DNA of 57,905 nt, counting the filler, from Sluysia triapertura (Eukaryota), in the NCBI GenBank assembly GCA_046118255.1. It is 4 parts of 4 records of this genome, joined end to end, with 100 filler letters (N's around TTAATTAATTAA, not from the genome) between each part and the next. Parts side by side here need not be neighbours in the genome. Positions count along the whole stretch, not along the records: positions 1 to 11,101 come from JBJNIA010186702.1; 3 more parts are not named here. One strand, given 5' to 3'. The position numbers were made by a program, and so were the translations under genes. Of the stretch, positions 3,701-57,221 are shown one piece after another. Below the pieces are notes generated by a model. It made no database searches. It was given only the letters and a program-made list of their open reading frames with translations, and was not told the DNA's origin. Position 1 is the first letter of the stretch. Each line of letters starts with the position of its first letter.

Positions 3701-3933
3701 TTAAGATATCTTTACAGTTGTAAGTGAATTAAGAGTGAATAAGATGTATTTACATTATTATTAATATTATGATTATAATTATTATTGTTATTGCTTTGGT
3801 TGATTTGTGATTTTAAAATGGTTGTAAATGTTTTTAATCTTGTAATTTGGTAATGTTGTTATAACTTTAAGCTCTATTGTCAATAAAATATTCCTTTTAT
3901 GCCATTTATAATGAAGAAGTTTCAAAAGTGAAG

Positions 3934-5376
3934 TTAAGATACCGTAAGTAACCTTAATGCTGGCTTTAAGAATAAGTTGCTTAAATCTCTAATAAAATTT
4001 ATCAATCTGCTCTCTTTGTTAATGGAGCATCGTGTAAACGGATTATGAACGTCCTTCAATGAACTAAAAGTCTTAAAGTGCTTACCCAAGAGTTGGGTAG
4101 AATGGACTTCTACAGTATTAGGAAATTTATCTGCGTTTAATCTTGTCAATTTTAACATACATATATTTATTACAACCTCATGCAAAAACAACAAAAATCT
4201 TTTTAATATATAAGTTTGAAAATTTAATAAAAATACATTAATTGGTATGTATTTAATCACTAAATGTCTAAGATTCAAATTAGAAGTTTTGTCTTCTTCC
4301 TCATCTCCTCTTTCTCCAAGTTTATTGTTGCATACCACACTCTGTTTGGCTTCACGAATCCGTTCGGTAGCTTTATAAATGGAATTAAAGATTAATGAAT
4401 ATATTAAGTTAAAACTCACGTTGATTGTTTCAATATTAGAAACGTTAACAAAGATGAACTCAAAATCTACTACATCAGTCAAATCACTCATAAACAACTT
4501 TGATTGTAATACTTTATCTAAGAATTGATATTGCATCATTGATTTCAGACTTTTTGTTAAGGTTTCTTAAGTAGAGTAGAACACAAATTTTAAGGCGTTT
4601 AAGTAAGTATGAATCACTTCTTTGTTCAAGATCCACGTGAAAATGTCTAAAACCCGATTGATCATGTCTTTGAACGTCCTGATATCTGCTTAATGAGATT
4701 AAATTACGAAATTGTTCTTCTGAAATGTACGTGACGATTAATTGATAAGTTGAAACTTGAAGCATTCTATGATTGTTCTGTAGAAATTGCAGGACATCGA
4801 GAATTTTATGTACGTATTTGATTATCATCATAATTTCGTTTCGGTATATAATCATGTGCACATAATGAAGGTGAAACGATCGGATCATATGATAACTACT
4901 AATGATTGACTTATATGAGTATGATAAAAATTGGTTTCTTTTCTTTAGATCACAATTGTTGTCTACATCGACAGTTCTATCAGGACTAAATCATAGTCTA
5001 GAATTCGTGAATAAGCTAATACTTTACTGGGAAATATTGGTTCAATTAAATACTTTATAATTCTACGGAATTGAGGTACCTCGACATATTTTACATCGAA
5101 TTCTGAATAATTATCATCAATTAATGTGCATACAAATTTTAGTTCCGAATCACGTAGTCCTGATCTAAATATAAAAACGACAACATTTATTTTTAGAGCT
5201 GATGTTTCACAAAGTATGACTTTGTCATCAAGATAACCGAGCTGCGTTTTAGAAAAATTAAAACTGTTTGATTTAAGAAAAATAGGATCAATCCATCTCG
5301 TAAATAACTGTTTGCGGATCACTTCCATTGTTGTTACGTTATCTTCTTTAGTTTTAAATTTTTGAATTGTCACCAT
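3934..5376 (-). pseudogene. Disrupted ORF of about 480 codons, product unknown
   Basis: Three abutting or overlapping minus-strand ORFs (5376-4963, 4888-4514, 4539-3934) with coding-like composition, separated by stops and frameshifts. No family recognised. Confidence 0.55.
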
Positions 5377-5621
5377 GTTTGAAACGAAATTAAATTATAA
5401 ATATTTACAACAATAAAGTGATAATAGTATTTTCTGTTTTTCAACTGTTACTGTTTTTTTTGTTGTTTAATTTTTTTAACTCTTTTCGATTCTATTTTTG
5501 TGACTCGTCGCAGTGTTTTTTAAACCAGTTTAAATTGTGAACATTTACAATTATTATAATTATGTTATTTTTCTCCTCTCACAAATTGGTCACCACTAAA
5601 GCAAGTTGTTTTAGTTTGTTT

Positions 5622-5798
5622 TACTATTGGTTATCCAATCACGACGTCAAAAATAATTATTTACATAGAATAGTCGTGATTGGATGATACATAGTATTGA
5701 AGTACAAAATTAATTTTTGATGATTTACCATCATCAATATTGATATGTTAATAAAATGGTGCATAGAACGTCAATATTGATGATGGCAACAACAAAGG
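5622..5798 (+). ncRNA. Pair of long pri-miRNA-like hairpins (candidate)
   Basis: Perfect inverted repeats 5633-5645/5673-5685 (13 bp) and 5728-5743/5771-5786 (16 bp). Both extend outward using G-U pairs on the + strand, and both loops are 27 nt. Confidence 0.5.
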
Positions 5799-5883
5799 TA
5801 GTTTTAATTATATTTATAAAATATTTTAGTAATTGATAATAATAATAATAATAACAATAATATTGTTATTATTATTTTTTTAA

Positions 5884-6704
5884 ATGGAAATAAATCGCAT
5901 AAATCTTTCTTTTGATAACTTACACGATCTTTTCTTTGAACTACTTAATTTTCTACATATAGAATAAAAAAAGAACAAAAACAGATGACATGCTGTGAAG
6001 GAGCAACGGTAACGAGGTTTACTACGTCTCAATTATCAATGAACAAAATTACAGCAGCCATCTAAATGACCGTATGAAGTAATGAAAATTACCGACACTA
6101 ATTAGATTCTACCAAATTAAGATTCATAAACATTTGTAGTACATGCCAATAGATGTAAGATAGCACCACATAATTTAATTTAATCACGTAAGGATACGAG
6201 CTATTATCGACATGGGAACTACTACATCTGTAATGCATTATAATTTCCTAACTACCTGGGAACTTCTGTTTATGGATCCACCGCAAACAACAATTTATAA
6301 CGTGGAGCGAATACAAATTAATATGAATAGAGTAATACATGGTCATTTAACTATATTGGATCCACACGTAAATGCAATACATTTGGGAAAACTCTCCTTT
6401 TGATTTGATAATTTATCTAGATATAATTGATAAATTAGATGCTATAGTAATACATAGTAAGTTTGGTTTTATAAAATTTCCACGATGTGCATAATTGATA
6501 ATTCCACAAGTTGTTGTTCCGCACATTGATGATGAGATTACTTTATATGAAACTCCAATTCATGTTCCGACACCTAGTTTCGAATCCATTGATCCCGTAA
6601 TACCTTCGTTTCGATTATCTGATATGTTATGGGAACGGTCATCTACTGACTCATCGCTGTCATCCGTAACGAGTGAATTTTCGGAAGCTCTGTTGACACG
6701 ATAA
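5884..6704 (+). pseudogene. Decayed retropepsin-like aspartic protease ORF with Pro/Ser-rich tail
   Basis: Frame just before the 6212 ORF reads VRIRAIID(M)GTTTSVM, matching the retropepsin ALxDTGAxxS motif with a single ACG>ATG change. Several stops and frameshifts. No RT follows. Confidence 0.6.
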
Positions 6705-6747
6705 TACTTACTTTTACTAATGCAAACAATCATAGTATTAAAAAATC

Positions 6748-7717
6748 ATGTTGAGCATCATTACTAATATTAACAGTTGAATTCTTATCTTTAATTAATT
6801 TTGTTAAATCTATAAATTTTGAGAAAGATGAGGAATACAGAAATTTATACGAGGCTTTCAATAATGGAAAATAATAAAAATTATTGATTACAAATATTTA
6901 TAACGAATATTTACTTAGAACCACTGTTAATTGGTAAACCACACCAATATGCTTATAGACCAATGTTAATATCATTTGAATTGGATACGAAACGAAATAC
7001 TTAAAAGGTGCGAAATTTGGCGCAAAATATTGCAACAAATAAATCGATAAACAATTGTACCTCTAAAATCAAAGACAGTAATGTTTTATCTAATGGTAAA
7101 ATACATAACATCGTCATATTAATCTATAAGCTACTTTTTATTTTTGCAGTTCTTATATGCAATATGGATCATATTATATATAGTTGATTTTTGTAGAAAA
7201 TTATGTATGTTCTCAAACAATGATTACTGTAGTACAATGTAATACACATGATGTATAGGTTTACAAAACCGAATATCTTGAATTTCGTAATTATGACACA
7301 GAAGTTATATTCAAGTTAGATTTACATGCTTAAAACCTGAGAGACTTAATTTCTTGCTAAAAGACACATTATTGCTAGAATATATGTAGCACCGGCGAAA
7401 TTAGAACAGTTGTATTTTGCATTAAATGGAACACGGAAATACTTATCATTACCAGAAATGTTAAAAAATGATTTGCATTATTAATATTAATTTTAGTTGC
7501 AATATTATTTATCATCGCTTTGTCAATAGTTATAATCATTATGTTTGCATCAAATAGATGTAGATATCCATGTTTACCTCCAAATAATGACAATGATGAC
7601 CGATATACTATTCCACATTGAAGTAATTTAGAACCACCACCAGGATTTCCATTAGAATAACCTCCTGTTTACGAATATGCAACTGGTAATCACTCGCCTC
7701 TGATATATGGAGACTGA
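6748..7717 (+). pseudogene. Decayed single-pass membrane protein with Pro-rich PPxY tail (env/glycoprotein-like)
   Basis: From 7472 the frame reads FALLILILVAILFIIALSIVIIIMFAS (TM), then NRCRYPCLPP...LEPPPGFPLE*PPVYEY (PPVY at 7661-7672). The upstream part is Cys-containing but broken by stops. Start is approximate. Confidence 0.45.
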
Positions 7718-8799
7718 CAAATAACAAGTTTACAATCCGTTATGTTAGCGCGTGTATGTTTGACATGTATAATCAATGTACATACAAAATAAGTAACAAT
7801 ATTAAGACCACGGATTACATTAAAAGCACTTCAGCGAATTATATATGCAACAATACAGATAATACTATTAAAATCACTAAGATCTCTATGCGCTGTTGCA
7901 TCACTGATTGGTGCAAGTACGAATCAGACATTAGAAAAATGTAAGTCACTGGATTGTGCTTAAGATGGTCTCATGGAAAATCGATTATTTAATGTCACAC
8001 TAATTTAGGAAATTGAGGATGGACCAAAACAAAATTCGAGAATCATATCGATACATAATTACATGATTAGGACAAAGCCTTTCATCTTTGATCAGCTTTC
8101 GGTGATCAAATTTCGGCGACTATTAAATTTCCAATCCACTAACAGAAAATATAATATTAATTGCCTTTTAATTTGTTAAGGCAAGTCACTATGCTTTGAT
8201 ACTTCCTAACACTAGTATCCATTTACTCTTTGTCCCAGATCATGATCTTACATTTATTGAAGTTTAAATCTTGTGCTATAATGAAATTCATGACACTATT
8301 GGATTTTGGTCAGAATATAGAATATGTGATTTAATAAACTGGATGTTTTCACTAATTCAACACCATTTACTACTACCGTTTTAAGTACTAGAAATACCGT
8401 ACGTATTACTACAAATATAAGTTATACTACTAAACTAGATAAGACTTTAAATCACTCGCACATAATTTTACTACCGACTCCATAATAAATCTCTATCACG
8501 CTATATTTAGTTATCACGTTACATCAATTACGTGTTGTTTTTCAATTTCATAAGTTTTATCTATTCAATCACCTTTTTATTAAAGCATAAATAGGACATA
8601 AAATATGAGTAATGACATGTCCTATTCGCTGACCATGTGTGACAGCTGTTAAAAATGTAAAAAATGTGATGCTGATATTCATATTTTGATAATTTAATCA
8701 AAATAATGTTTATTATGTATTTATTTTAATACTTACTTTTAATTTAAATCTCACTAAATTATGTGCAGATATGGTGACCACTCCTTTATTTACTGATTC

Positions 8800-11280: not shown

Positions 11281-11634
11281 ATTCTTATTCTAATTAAGAC
11301 GATCTTCTTCTACATGAATTAGCTTATATTCAAATTTAAGAGATAGGATAAGAATGTCGGGAGTTGTGAAGTGTTATGTGCTGCTGTAATTATTATTCAA
11401 TTTGAATTAATTTTTTTTCTTTCTTATTAATCTTCTTCTTCGCATTTCAACAACGAGATCTCACACAAACTCAATGCGCGATATTGTCAGATGATCTTTA
11501 AACATGAATCTTCAAGTTCAATTAATTTTCCATACTAAATTATTTAATTCTGATGTAAACAATGTGTGAGGACTATGAAATGATTCAGTAATGTGTGATT
11601 TAAATTGAGAATTCTTCAATTCTTGTACGATTTT

Positions 11635-11750
11635 GGACTCGCAAATCGAACCTGGAACCTCTGGCTTCACAGCTGTTCAGTTCGATGCTCTACCAACTGA
11701 CCTATCAGCCCCGACTAACAATTTTATTTTATTATAGTCAATTATACTAT
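11635..11750 (-). mobile_element. Degenerate tRNA-derived repeat (same family as 32976)
   Basis: Minus strand reads aaattgttagtc-GGGGCTGATAGGTCAGTTGGTAGAGCA...GGTTCGATT (A and B boxes). Shares about 35 nt of 5' flank with the 32976 copy. Confidence 0.8.
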
Positions 11751-13379: not shown

Positions 13380-13990
13380 TCTACATCAAATATCCTGTCA
13401 TTTTGTTGTAAAATGGAATTATAAGTTTTCATTAGAGCTTCTCAACAATTTATCAACAGCATTCTGAATTTCGATTGCATTTGTTGGCCTAGGTCTGATG
13501 GCCTTATACTCCAAAAATTACTCAAGTGGATTCAGCTGATGTGTATAAGGTGGAAGGATTTTAGAAGCAATTCCATTGGACGTCAAGAGTCTCAAATAGG
13601 CAGTTATCAATAACCAATAAATAGTCGCGGTGACTATTGAAGAATGGGAGTAGTTTGGATAAGCACGTTTATCTCCATCATAAGCACGTTTATCTCCATC
13701 ATGAGCACGTTTATCTCCATCATGAGCACGTTTATCTCCATCATGAGCACGTTTATCTCCATCATAAGCACGTTTACCTCCATCATGAGCACGTTTACCA
13801 TTGCATGGCAGACAATACCTCTTGCATTTACTAAATTTATAATCGATAAAACGCCTTAAACATTCAATTAAAGTTTTATCGAAATTAATAAACGTTTAAA
13901 CATTCGTGTATTCTAAATCCAAACAGAATGGACCGTGTTGTCATGTTTCTGTTTTTGTGTGCGACCAATAATGAAATTAAAATCACAAAA
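13380..13990 (-). pseudogene. IS630/Tc1-like transposase fragment
   Basis: Minus strand reads ILPPYTHQLNPLE*F (consensus LPPYSPxLNPIE). MVNV at the expected MDNV position. Boundaries approximate. Confidence 0.65.
13661..13800. repeat. 21-bp minisatellite, about 6.6 copies
   Basis: Unit (a/g)agcacgtttatctccatcat. Confidence 0.97.
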
Positions 13991-17359: not shown

Positions 17360-18109
17360 ACAAATTTAATTAATCAATATTCAACGCCATTTGAAAGTGC
17401 AATTAATAATAGCTCCATCTTGAGTTTGGTAATCATTTTAACATTCTGTCATTTGGGCTTGGAATTCGTAGCAAAATCATCACAAGATTTTATTTTATTC
17501 CATGAGAGAGTAAATTATTTTGTTTTAAGTGATTTTGATTTTTCATAAGTTAAAATCGTAAACTACGCGTAAAATCAAATTTAAATCTAATATTGTAAGA
17601 ACCCTGATATATTAAGGGGAAACTTTCCACGTAAATTTTAAAAGAAAATAGATTAAATATGCCAAGAGGATTTTGATCTTAAAATAATATTCAAGTTCTA
17701 TTTTTGTTGATTATATTGTATAAATTTCGTGTCCTAGCTTATTCTGCTCTTGCATTTAATTTAATATAATTAAAACAAATGAGTTTGTCTTTCTTGTGAT
17801 ATTAACGTTAAGACCCTCTTAAAAATCATTAAGTTAGGAACGTACTAAACGTATTTTTAAGTGAATATAGTTAACTTATCAAGTTGCAGAAGCGCCAGCT
17901 ACAAGTTGTAAGATGTTTACTGTAACCGGACCTTGCTAAATTTTATTTGTCGTAGGTTTAGCTATAGGAAAATCATAGCAAATAGGACATTCACAACTAG
18001 AATTCTACTTCGTAAATCAATACTAAGTTTTCTGAATAACAGTTGCTTGGCAATAACATTTAATAAAATCAAATACTTATTCGAAGATGAATATTACTGT
18101 TGTGATGAC

Positions 18110-18369
18110 CTATTATATCCCTTGTTATTGGCTGCTATTATTATGTCCCTTGTTATTGGCTGCTATTATTACGTCCCTTGTTATTGGCTGCTATTATTAT
18201 GTCCCTTGTTATTGGCTGCTATTATTATGTCCCTTGTTATTGGCTGCTATTATTATGTCTCTTGTTATTGGCTGCTATTATTACGTCCCTTGTTATTGGC
18301 TGCTATTATTACGTCCCTTGTTATTGGCTACTATTATTACGTCCCTTGTTATTGGCTGCTGTTATTATT
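18110..18369. repeat. 28-bp minisatellite, about 9 copies
   Basis: Unit cccttgttattggctgctattatta(t/c)gt. Confidence 0.97.
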
Positions 18370-19333
18370 AGTGTTAAGATGCATCAGTAATTATCAATAA
18401 ATGTTAAGATGTTATCGATCAGTTATTAATAGAATTATTGATTATTTAACGTTTAATATCATTTTGTTAATTTAATATTTTTGGCATTAATTTAATATCT
18501 TTGGAATTAAAATATTTTTGGAATTTTATATTTTGTTAATTTTGGACTTTTATTATTTGGAATTAATTAATTTTTGAAAGTAAGAGAATATTAATATTAT
18601 TATTATTGTTAAAATATTGAAAATTATTTATTTGTTTTAAAAATAATATAACCGTTTACCTTCAAGGTCGTCTTTTTTAATATGAAAGCATTGAAATAAA
18701 GCTCCATACTCACAACTTTTTTATCGATAATTAACTATTAGTTAAATTACTTTGCGAAGATGCTGTTTTAGTATCGAATCTTAAAAGGAAATAAACTAAA
18801 GATACAAAGGAATTTTTCAAAAGCCAAGATTGATTAATTTTAATTTTGCGTCTAGAGCCAAAGTTGATTGAAGTATTCTACAACTGTGTTCAACTCTATC
18901 CAAAAATTGTATTCAATTGAGATTAGTTATGTTCAAGAAATAAAACTTGCAAAATCTGTATAAATTTTGTGTTTGTCTGTTGTGAGTTAATATAAAAATT
19001 TGCGGCTTTATGTAGTTATTTTAGGTCGACCTTGGCTTTTATTCAAATACCAAAAATATTAAATTTAAACAAATATTTTAAATAAAAATATTAAATAAAT
19101 ATTTGAATTAAATAATACTTACATTTAAAAATTGAATTAAATTAATTCCGAAATTAAACAATTAAGTTAACTTAAAAAACCAATAATAATACCAAAATAA
19201 AACAAAATCAATAACAATAATTGCAAGTCATTATCAATCAATATTCACACAATAACATATTAATCACAATATGCATCAACCACATGCACCAATTGACTTT
19301 GTTACATTGATTCTGTTTACTTTACATAAAAAT

Positions 19334-20400: not shown

Positions 20401-21486
20401 TTACACATCTTCTCCTTTTATACTTTTCACGAAATACTTCTTTATATTTCTGTAATATTCGGGAAATTCTTTCGGTAACTCGAGCAATATTCCTTCTATT
20501 ATTCTCTTAAAGTACTGAAACGGATCTCCTGTGATTTTCTCCATTTCGTGCTTTATTCTTATCTTTGATTTTATCATGTTAAACATCTGCTCATTGGGAC
20601 TTAGAAACGGAGAGTGTGGAGGAAGAAACTTGATTACATGCAAAGTGGAAGTAGTTGTGAACTCGTTCTCAAAGGCATCATTATCATAGATCAAATACAT
20701 CTTCTTGTTTGGTAACTTTATCGACAAATTTGTGATAAAGTTCTGATATATTATATAGTTTACTGCACCTCTTTGTATTTCTTTGTGAACGAGTCCATTT
20801 TTCGAAATAGCTACGATGAGAGTTGTGTGAGGTAATTTCACAATGGATTTGTTGAAATTGATCGAATTTTCGTGTTTTATCCACATCTTGGGAATTGATT
20901 TCCATTGTCCAAATTTGATTTCTCCGATGTAAACACATTCACTTTCTCGCCAACATTCGTTTAGGTAATTTTCGACATACAATCGACGCTTTTCTTTAGT
21001 TTCATCTGTATTACGATAAATCAAATTTTGTTTGCAACTCTTGAAGCTAATCAGTTGACCTTCTAAATACCTCGATATTGTCGTGGTTGATAATTCCAAA
21101 CCCAAGGAGTGATTTAAAAAGTTTCTCATCATTAATAAAGTGGATGTTGGGTAATCTTCAATATACTTTAATAAAGCAGATCCTACATCGTCATTGATTT
21201 TCTGTTGTCTGTGACCTCGTGGACCTGAACTTAAACTTTTATGCTTAGAATACCTTGCCAAAATTCCTTTAACTGTCCATTTCTTCACACCAAGAATCTT
21301 ACCTACTTCGTAAGGTGACTGACCGTTCATGGATGCTTCTATTATTCTCGTTTTATCTTCATTACTAATTCTACATTGTTTAATTATTTAAAAATTAATT
21401 AAAAATTACCTATTCCTTTTATTTGAAGTACTTGGTTTTTCTGTTTTTCGATCGGTTGTTTCTGCATCGTTCGAATTATCTTGCAT
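20401..21486 (-). CDS. Spliced IS630/Tc1-like transposase-derived protein, 348 aa (exons 21486-21410 and 21370-20401)
   Basis: N-terminal HTH-like region (EVGKILGVKKWTVKGILARY; YPTSTLLMMRNFL...LSTTTISRYL) and DDE_3-like motifs YIGE, IYDN and FLPPHSPFLSPNE. A 39-nt GT-AG intron joins the upstream ATG in frame. Confidence 0.85.
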
Positions 21487-32975: not shown

Positions 32976-33047
32976 GGGCTGATAGCTCAGTGGTAGAGCA
33001 TTCGCACTGCGCATCGAAGGTCCCGGGTTTGATCCCCGGTCAGTCCA
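32976..33047 (+). pseudogene. tRNA-Cys-like sequence (pseudogene, or SINE/TRIM head)
   Basis: 7-bp acceptor stem gggctga/tcagtcc and D arm TAGCTCAGTGGTAGAGCA are present. The anticodon arm is 18 nt and aberrant, and the T loop is GTTTGAT. (TTA)n follows. Confidence 0.8.
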
Positions 33048-55032: not shown

Positions 55033-56572
55033 CTAGATATTCAGAATATATAGTGTGGTGGCCTACATTTTCATTCAAAATTTAAATCATTATTACACAT
55101 ACTTAATATCACATTTCACATTTTACTTTTTCAGATTCATTAAAATTATTTTTCACTTTAAAACAATTTCATAACATTGAAATTATACTTGTATCGAAAA
55201 CCATTGAGCGTGCATTTCAAATTTGATTTGAAACATTTCAAGTTCACGGTTGTTCAACATTCAATCATTAACATCATTGAAAAACATTAAATTCACATTT
55301 CAAAATTATTTTTAAACATTACAATGAAAATGGAATTTCTTTAGCATCCTTGATTATGTTGTCGTCTTCTTTAAACATTCTTTTATCAGTCCTTTTCACG
55401 TTTTATTTTTTTGCAGCGAATGAAAGAAAGATTTCCATATATTCTTTTTGATATTTTAAAAGAAAAGAAGAAATATTGAAGAAAGGAAAAGATAGTAAGA
55501 ATTTATAGATACTTAACAAAAAAAACAGAAATTTATGTAATTTTATTTTAAAAAGAAAAAGAAAGCTTTTAAAGAAAGAAAAGAATTTTAAATAATTTAA
55601 AGAATTTTAAGAGAAAAAGAATTATTTTCAAAAAAGAAATTTATGTTTTGTATTATTTTCATTTTCTGTTTTATTATTATTATAATTATTAGTAAGTATT
55701 TTATTTTCATTTATTATTATTATTATCATTATTATTAGCATAAAAATAGTTGATTATAATCTGTCATTAGTTGACAATTTTTAATTAAATAAAATAAAGA
55801 TCATTTTGTTAATTGTCAACTAATGACAGTCGCTTAGTCCAGAAATTTAAATTTAATTTTAATTTTATGCTGTTTCAACTATTGGCTGTGTCAACAAAGT
55901 TTGTAAAAATCTCAATCGATTATTGAGTAACTGATTTGACTCGTTAAATTAATAATAGCTAAAAAATTTCATTACTTTTAAAAGTAGTTACAAAATGAAT
56001 CATTGTTTAAAATAAAGTTAAAAATAGACGGTGACAAAAATTAGCTCACAATTAAGCTAGACAGCTTTTAGTTTGAAGATTTTATGAAAACAAGGTTTAA
56101 GAACAGTACTTAATGAAAAATTTAATTCATGATAATTATATGTAGTTTATTAAAAATGAATTGTGAAGATGAAAATTCAATTTATTGTAATTATAAAGGA
56201 ATGGTGTTTCATTTCAAAACAGATCATTCACAAAATTCATCTGAGATTAAACATTTAATAATAAAGAAAACAAAAGAGTATTTAGACGATCAATTGGAAA
56301 CTTGTATCACATTTCCCATGTTGACCTAAAACACAAATAATAGATTTAGATTATTATTTTTTAGCAGAAAATAGACCTAGTTCGGCATATTTGATTGAGT
56401 TTATATTGAACAGTGATAACAATAGTGGCAAACGTTTGCAACAAGCTCAAAATATCAGTGTTGCATATACTTCATCAACATCAAATACTGATTATAATGC
56501 CATGAAATTATGCTGTTCTATTTATGTGTATACAAAATCGATAATAACTACTGTCGTCACTAGTCCATCGAA
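55033..56572 (+). repeat. Diverged inverted copy of 38130-39570 (LINE 3' UTR-like segment, TTA tract, flank and gene)
   Basis: Colinear matches to the reverse complement, e.g. tgtggtgg, ttttactttttcagattca, catttcaagttcac, cattcttttatca, tactgattataa. Confidence 0.85.
55761..55829. repeat. Perfect 19-bp inverted repeat with 31-nt spacer
   Basis: ctgtcattagttgacaatt / aattgtcaactaatgacag. Confidence 0.95.
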
Positions 56573-57221
56573 TTCTTAACTTCAATTTTTTAATTTGTAT
56601 AATTCAACAATGCTTTTTCAAATTCGACACAAATGCAAAATAATTCAAAATGTAATTCGAACGAAATAATTTCTGCTAATTCATCAAATGTTAATTAATC
56701 CTTCCAGTGTATATTTAATGTCAAGTAATGTTCCTCTAATACACTTGACAGGTATGAATATTGATGCTACAGTTTCACACATGTCAGTGGCAGATGTAAT
56801 AACATCCGATTTAGTAACAAATACAACTAATAATCATGGATTTGTGTTTCCTTCTCAAAAGTTATCTCATCCTTATGTATCAGTTAGAATGGCACCCCAT
56901 AAAAAGAATACGCTAAATGATTATTACAAACGTGGCATCTGTCTTTATGGCATGTCACTAGATGGACAATGTTCTAGTTGCAAATATGCGCACAACATCT
57001 CAGAATTACAACAAGATACAAATGAAGAGCGTATCTTGTCCGACAATCTCAACCTCATCATGCATCTTATTTCCAGCTTAAGTTTGAAACCAATTATTTC
57101 AAGTTCTTCCATTAACAGTGAATTAGGAAATGTTATCTACAGTGATAACTCGAATTATAAAGTAATTCTTTCGTTTTATAAAATGTTTTGTAAAAGTTTT
57201 AACTGTATTTTTTCTTTATAG
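56129..57221 (+). pseudogene. Frameshifted unknown gene with C-terminal CCCH-like zinc finger
   Basis: Three consecutive ORFs. KKNTLNDYYKRGICLYG...CSSCKYAHNISEL resembles the TIS11-type pattern KTxLC...GxCxYGxxCxFAHxxxEL. Confidence 0.6.

Follow-up and report, generated by a model that had tools for sequence, protein, structure and literature searches.

Features of the locus

The window, i.e., the whole 57,905-nt stretch of Sluysia triapertura DNA analyzed here, contains a truncated copy of a mobile element with a decayed cargo ORF, palindromes beside that ORF, and an adjoining repeat of a different kind (Table 1). Contigs of one sequencing run cover the whole region together with the neighboring repeat; they carry no expression information.

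Table 1. Features of the element copy in the window and of the repeat that adjoins it.
Feature	Position	Strand	Remarks
Remnant of a high-copy mobile element of ~2.9 kb	3795..6037	-	5′ arm (~700 nt) missing; relatives stop at 6037
Element 3′ terminus (minus-strand CCAAA)	3795..3824	-	Flanks unrelated beyond
Decayed chimeric cargo ORF, split into three frames	3934..5376	-	Long versions open in other copies
Segment from host misato exon 1	4903..5297	-	Junction placed by alignment
Third CCAAT box, immediately downstream from palindrome 1	5624..5632	-	Kept in most aligned relatives
Palindrome 1 (hairpin 1), inverted CCAATCA pair	5633..5685	.	49 nt box to box
Palindrome 2 (hairpin 2), CCATCA...TGAC arms	5728..5786	.	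Total length 59–61 nt in most copies
(AAT)n/(TAT)n tract, separating palindromes 2 and 3	5836..5880	.	
Palindrome 3, one arm	5996..6013	.	Partner arm lost at the 6037 break
Separate repeat, outside the element: decayed integrase C-terminal region, then membrane-protein-like ORF	6037..8652	+	

An initial annotation of this DNA had placed the palindromes between divergent genes of one decayed cassette. Those genes belong to two different repeats that meet at 6037. None of 19 related loci continues beyond this position, and the 6037–8652 repeat is a high-copy family of its own (627 candidates), so the flanking genes do not form a single cassette. The repeat cuts the window copy at 6037, and its relatives show integrase-like motifs; we take it, from such motifs, to be gypsy. 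A Pfam search with the repeat gave no match at the cut-off, and no LTR was seen after it in seven relatives. The 6037–8652 ORF has hydrophobic stretches and a proline-rich, PPxY-like motif.

Other features lie elsewhere in the window. A 328-aa ORF at 20401–21387 (minus strand) matches DDE_3 (E = 9e-8) and HTH domains and is a Tc1/mariner-like transposase. A stretch at 11630–11720 looks tRNA-like by eye on the minus strand, possibly a SINE, and is not called by ARAGORN, which reports one odd tRNA at 32976–33047. Tandem repeats occupy 13638–13805 (21-nt units) and 18055–18424 (28-nt units).

Twin hairpins in the window copy

The first two palindromes had been annotated as twin pri-miRNA-like hairpins with unrelated stems and position-matched loops. 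Both stems are present in the window copy (5633–5645 with 5673–5685, and 5728–5743 with 5771–5786), and each loop is indeed 27 nt long. The region folds far better than shuffled sequence, with z scores of −5.25 on the + strand and −6.72 on the − strand. The shared loop positions of AATAA and CATAGAA are likewise real in this copy, but they are not a property of the family. Among 87 twin modules collected genome-wide, AATAA-N7-CATAGAA occurs in both loops of a single module, the window's own; CATAGAA is found in loop 1 of one module and loop 2 of seven. The identity between the two window loops (13/27) is equalled by 6% of shuffles. In 16 of 17 aligned relatives, stem 2 ends in GAC, with one more pair and a loop of 25 nt; the window copy has a private change at this stem end and another in loop 1.

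The initial annotation had proposed a cluster of small RNAs in which the loop scaffold is fixed and the guide stems vary. The reverse is seen. The stems are the best-conserved columns in an alignment of 18 copies, are common to whole families and covary (see below), while loops of different families keep their length and are unrelated in sequence. A microRNA precursor is expected to have a stem with room for a ~22-nt duplex and a lower stem; conserved pairing here covers only ~13–19 bp, and the outer stem extensions, which had been described as continuing the pairing, differ from copy to copy among aligned relatives. Searches of Rfam with both strands gave no family at the gathering score, the best of the sub-threshold plant microRNA matches being MIR172 (32.8 bits vs 70). 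A cluster of microRNA-like precursors is therefore extremely unlikely, even though both hairpins fold well and the wobbles of hairpin 1 lean to one strand, and we reject it on the rarity of the loop scaffold and the Rfam result. Comparable palindromes are liable to be called microRNA hairpins, and caution is warranted. We also reject a PEVE-like or viral origin, since the cargo proved to be host-derived. Two parts of the initial annotation fared better: the label “element-encoded” and the alternative of inverted CCAAT boxes in a promoter both draw support from the copy number, the spacing, and the location immediately before the start codon of the cargo.

Anatomy and ends of the element

The window palindromes belong to a high-copy repeat with 744 candidates in the 619-Mb, AT-rich genome; 40 of the 744 were scored. 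Intact copies are 2.6–3.5 kb long, with TG at one end and C[C/T]AAA at the other, in the order TG end, AC-rich arm, palindrome 3, (AAT)n, palindrome 2, palindrome 1, leader, ORF, and C[C/T]AAA. The 5′ end of intact copies is sharp and, in the minus-strand reading, is TGTAGTGGCCAAC. The 15-mer at the TG end has 1,458 exact genomic matches (0 in the control), and a sister end has 4,339 (3 in the control); flanks are unrelated among the 30 inspected for the main end and the 30 inspected for the sister end. The AC-rich arm, ~600 nt long, directly follows the TG end of intact copies, and the complete form of palindrome 3 lies 615–856 nt from that end in relatives. At the opposite end, 24 of the 39 non-self matches listed start exactly at 3795.

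Some copies are extended at the 3′ end. At 7 of 30 3′ ends there is an additional 27-nt unit, which contains a small hairpin and beyond which the flanks diverge; in some copies it ends in CTAAA. The unit occurs zero, one, or two times, each closing in a C/T-AAA-like sequence, at L037 (left end), L102, L103, and L108, and the same pattern is seen at L112, L117, L123, and L126. The unit was considered as a tRNA primer site and rejected, because its first bases are variable and the similarity between flanks is lost immediately beyond it.

Members of the superfamily are frequently found nested head-on inside each other's AC-rich arms (L021, L027, L032, L109, L190, and L207), and several lie inside gypsy pol sequence (L025, L035, and L285). 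The window holds two further members with the sister TG end, at 55054 (+) and 39567 (−); the former has an 18-bp palindrome and precedes a zinc-finger-like ORF at 56670–57221. We found no description of the superfamily in the literature searched, which was mostly open-access text.

Capture of misato exon 1

The cargo ORF of relatives matches the Misato N-terminal domain (PF10644, E = 1.2e-6), and the decayed misato segment of the window copy is 70% identical to the host over 5002–5263. The host misato gene lies on another contig (best match, E = 2e-21), with its first exon intact and without the module upstream. A search bearing on the lineage of the organism gave two vertebrate misato sequences. 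The rest of the gene is on a third contig, where it resumes after AG in the same phase; this part is absent from the cargo. A parental family shares the arm, the palindromes, and the downstream ORF, and has an N-terminus of its own instead of misato. In the chimeric family, host misato exon 1 has thus taken the place of the parental N-terminus; the host piece starts ~7 nt ahead of the ATG and runs up to the splice donor.

At the 3′ junction, misato homology stops at host position 1528–1529 in 28 of 52 unique matches (3 extend further, and the remainder are shorter), the host bases that follow directly are GT, and TTTAG is found at the junction site in 5 of 6 parental copies. Microsimilarity there amounts to one base plus the donor/acceptor pair. 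At the 5′ junction, an A-run before the start codon is common to host, parent, and chimera. Since the host exon in the cargo stops exactly where the splice donor begins, and there meets an AG of the parental ORF, capture was likely via RNA; DNA breakage would hardly yield such an in-frame union of host donor and AG.

We propose a four-step route. A parental copy would have been located in sense orientation within misato intron 1, and the host exon would have been spliced in frame to a cryptic AG in the element ORF. Reverse transcriptase would then have left the chimeric RNA for a parental one at the A-run that precedes both start codons. The product would have retained the promoter and subsequently been amplified. 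The misato splice capture is one historical event; no second example was found in the CSRNP or myotubularin families (see below), whose gaps are not GT-AG and whose host genes were not found.

At L176, on the reverse strand at 4779, a sister-type element starts in sense within the presumed misato intron 1. This is the arrangement that the capture model requires, but the element is not of the parental family.

Other cargos and past selection

The module sits a few hundred nucleotides or less before the start codon, ahead of differing cargos. Besides misato, families carry CSRNP (E = 1e-6), an Unkempt-type finger (E = 3e-6, under the cut-off), and a myotubularin-like sequence (E = 3e-4, under the cut-off). 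Pfam gave E < 0.005 for 6 of 40 further ORFs, one of which lies 4.7 kb out and is probably flanking DNA. A long open version of the cargo ORF, of 389 aa, is present in L033; it yielded 2 weak matches among 1.84 billion representatives. A protein search with the L019 ORF gave no homolog, and a Pfam search with the parental ORF gave no match. The 40 best matches included no source for the constant part of the ORF. In the ESM Atlas, there were matches to tubulin C-terminal clusters with a score of 0.87, which serve as a lead only.

Pairwise dN/dS was calculated for 13 copies selected for long open frames. The median is 0.83 for the misato part (77 pairs) and 0.475 for the downstream constant part (30 pairs), which may reflect selection on the constant part in the past, with the proviso that the copies were chosen for being open.

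Mode of spread

Of 44 module-bearing starts, 4 have a 5-bp duplication after C[C/T]AAA vs 0.53 expected (p = 0.002); the set contains a false start as well as some nested starts that face the opposite way. Duplications of 4 bp and 6 bp show no excess in the same set. An earlier test gave 6 of 52 (p ~0.02). Among nine misato-type copies with both ends mapped, L134 alone has a TSD.

The element shares one hallmark of a solo LTR, TG at the 5′ end, and lacks another, ending in C[C/T]AAA rather than CA. PPT-like sequence was found in none of 152 upstream flanks, and 30 element ends showed no common internal region downstream. Indeed, no second LTR, PBS, PPT, or internal region was found beside any copy inspected, and terminal direct repeats are not among the top repeats listed for five full-length copies. 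A search for an autonomous partner among 50 RT-bearing loci found none; 3 of the 50 hold the element motif, in no case in LTR position. Together, the RNA step, the occasional 5-bp TSDs, and the TG end point to LTR-type machinery, but we do not class the element as an LTR because the CA end and the internal region are missing. Most simply, the unit is an old solo-LTR-like module with cargo inside.

An alternative is a DNA element of Helentron- or Pack-TIR-like type, with the palindromes as paired sites for an element-encoded transposase or recombinase and the cargo taken at the DNA level. Such an element could account for the lack of a TSD in 8 of the 9 copies just mentioned, for the terminal hairpin unit that closes in CTAAA in some copies, and for symmetric arm sequence that is private to each family. 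However, terminal or subterminal inverted repeats are absent among the top repeats of the five full-length copies, the palindromes lie ~1 kb inside the element, 5-bp TSDs are enriched, and a host donor abuts an AG at the cargo junction. We consider a DNA element quite unlikely.

What the palindromes may do

CCAATCA-N30–45-TGATTGG has 3,735 genomic matches vs 15 in the control. Spacers of 33–36 nt account for 2,783 CCAATCA-N-TGATTGG sites, spacers of 37–41 nt for 106, and spacers of 42–47 nt for 544 (controls, 2, 6, and 7). Across 27 lineages, the distances that separate palindrome 2 from palindrome 1 group around 34, 45, and 54–55 nt, with a Rayleigh p of ~0.014 at a period of 10–10.5 for lineages that are not independent; the ~10-nt period is broad, with p < 0.05 from 9 to 11. 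Two spacer peaks with a trough between them point to proteins on double-stranded DNA, and stepped spacing would be expected for proteins bound to one face of the duplex.

The palindromes are probably the promoter, in the form of paired double-stranded DNA sites, of a non-autonomous, LTR-like, gene-capturing retroelement that spreads by reverse transcription and integrase; from sequence evidence, we put the probability at about 0.58. CCAAT-binding factors such as NF-Y are candidate binders of palindrome 1. The base before CCAAT is a pyrimidine, which differs from the NF-Y consensus.

The arms of the palindromes match one another more closely than this reading alone would lead one to expect. In palindrome 1, arms of the same copy pair at 6.68 of 8 variable positions, vs 4.57 for arms from different lineages (29 lineages). 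CCAAT is present in 25 of the 29 lineages, and the other 4 have CCAAC on both arms; palindrome 2 has both-arm changes at two columns. The arms match beyond the consensus of any single factor, which independent host-factor sites do not predict.

The initial annotation had stated that G-U pairs in the outward extensions of both stems work only on the + strand. For hairpin 1 this is partly true: its mismatches in 29 lineages are G·T on the + strand in 41 cases vs 14, compared with a neutral G·T bias of 1.3 in the cargo and a local C:G skew of ~2. For hairpin 2 it does not hold, with 24 wobbles on + vs 20 on − by lineage (66 vs 57 uncollapsed), although one column of this palindrome is G·T on + in 12 of 17 lineages. 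Extra folding energy on the + strand is seen for 60 of 87 modules and for 62 of 84 stretches of adjoining control DNA; since control DNA shows the same, this advantage is not specific to the module. The support for the strand remark is thus real but confounded.

Arm covariation and the + strand wobbles of hairpin 1 weaken the promoter reading and lead to its main rival, in which the palindromes act as single-stranded hairpins on the window + strand, i.e., in first-strand cDNA or antisense element RNA. There, they could be replication, strand-transfer, or packaging signals read by the proteins of a partner element. Changes that are private to a family and affect both arms, CCAAT to CCAAC among them, would suit such hairpins, as would the excess of hairpin 1 wobbles on one strand and the skewed column in hairpin 2, and the splice junction speaks for a passage through RNA. 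The spacer peaks, by contrast, are about one helical turn apart and, with the phased gap, fit duplex DNA; hairpin 2 wobbles fall on both strands; and the energy bias extends to control DNA. Matching arms can also come from template-switch correction of near-palindromes. Overall, we regard single-stranded hairpins as somewhat unlikely.

A more far-reaching possibility, which we consider unlikely, is that the element represents a new class of retroelement, one that replicates as a lone 3-kb unit, has a single integrase-type end, and lacks a second LTR, in which the palindromes serve both as a two-way promoter and as hairpin signals in first-strand cDNA, and which harvests host first exons. If so, first exons would be spliced from an intronic seat and thousands of promoter-equipped chimeric ORFs seeded, some of them under selection (dN/dS ~0.5 in the constant part).

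If the promoter reading is right, this is an animal genome in which thousands of mobile units place host first exons, in frame, behind a ready promoter, amounting to large-scale exon shuffling through retroposition. The misato family presents parent, donor gene, and product side by side.

Comparison with known systems

Retroviral oncogene transduction produces one of its junctions through splicing and the other through a template switch between two co-packaged RNAs. The misato capture is similar in combining probable splicing at one junction with a proposed template switch at the other. It would be the mirror image of oncogene transduction, with the host donor joined to an element acceptor and the switch on the 5′ side, and the unit here is without virus genes.

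In LTR-mediated retrocopies, part of the element ORF is replaced at microsimilarities and the product then spreads non-autonomously (PMC5131818). As here, a piece of host mRNA replaces part of an element ORF, and one switch event is amplified to many sites; the microsimilarity at retrocopy junctions may have its counterpart in the A-run shared at the 5′ junction. There are also differences: those retrocopies lie between a 5′ and a 3′ LTR, whereas a single LTR-like unit is seen here, with the cargo within it and behind the promoter; and both of their junctions are mostly template switches, whereas the 3′ junction here is splice-like (PMC5131818).

Burro and Ogre are giant Ty3/gypsy elements, with Ogre LTRs of 1.9–6.5 kb (PMC6431247). 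They resemble the element in the multi-kilobase scale of the LTR, in their thousands of copies, and in having host-like domains aboard. Their extra ORFs are in the internal region (PMC6431247), unlike the situation here, where no gag-pol, PBS, or PPT was found beside the copies.

Helentron/HINE/DINE-1 elements (PMC4067079) and Pack-TIRs (PMC8277862) are similarly non-autonomous, with microsatellites, internal palindromes, and host fragments. The element described here differs in having 5-bp TSDs in a minority of copies and capture at a splice site. The 12- to 15-bp subterminal inverted repeats described for Helentrons (PMC4067079) are absent from the top repeats listed and from the ends inspected. 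Helentron insertion at TT (PMC4067079) has no counterpart here, T preceding the TG end in 50% of 100 flanks and the bases after the AAA end being mixed. A terminal palindrome, another Helentron-type feature, is found only in the 27-nt extra unit (7/30 ends). The terminal inverted repeats of Pack-TIRs and Pack-MULEs (PMC8277862) are likewise lacking, the two ends of the element being unrelated.

The DECA-CCAAT composite of TALE/NF-Y/Sp2, in which DECA lies 10–11 bp from CCAAT, also combines TGACA-type and CCAAT motifs in a spacing-constrained module (bioRxiv 10.64898/2026.02.16.706105). Here, the TGACA cores are >40 bp from the nearest box, and 33–69 nt separate palindrome 2 from the first box, rather than the 10–11 bp of the composite.

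Lastly, the m1m2 motif pairs of the Caenorhabditis elements CERP2 and CELE2 have been shown to act as promoters (PMC9757741). CERP2 and CELE2 are MITEs with two different motifs in inverted repeats, whereas the element here has three internal palindromes and a cargo ORF. In both cases, motif pairs with fixed spacing have been spread in thousands by a mobile element (PMC9757741).
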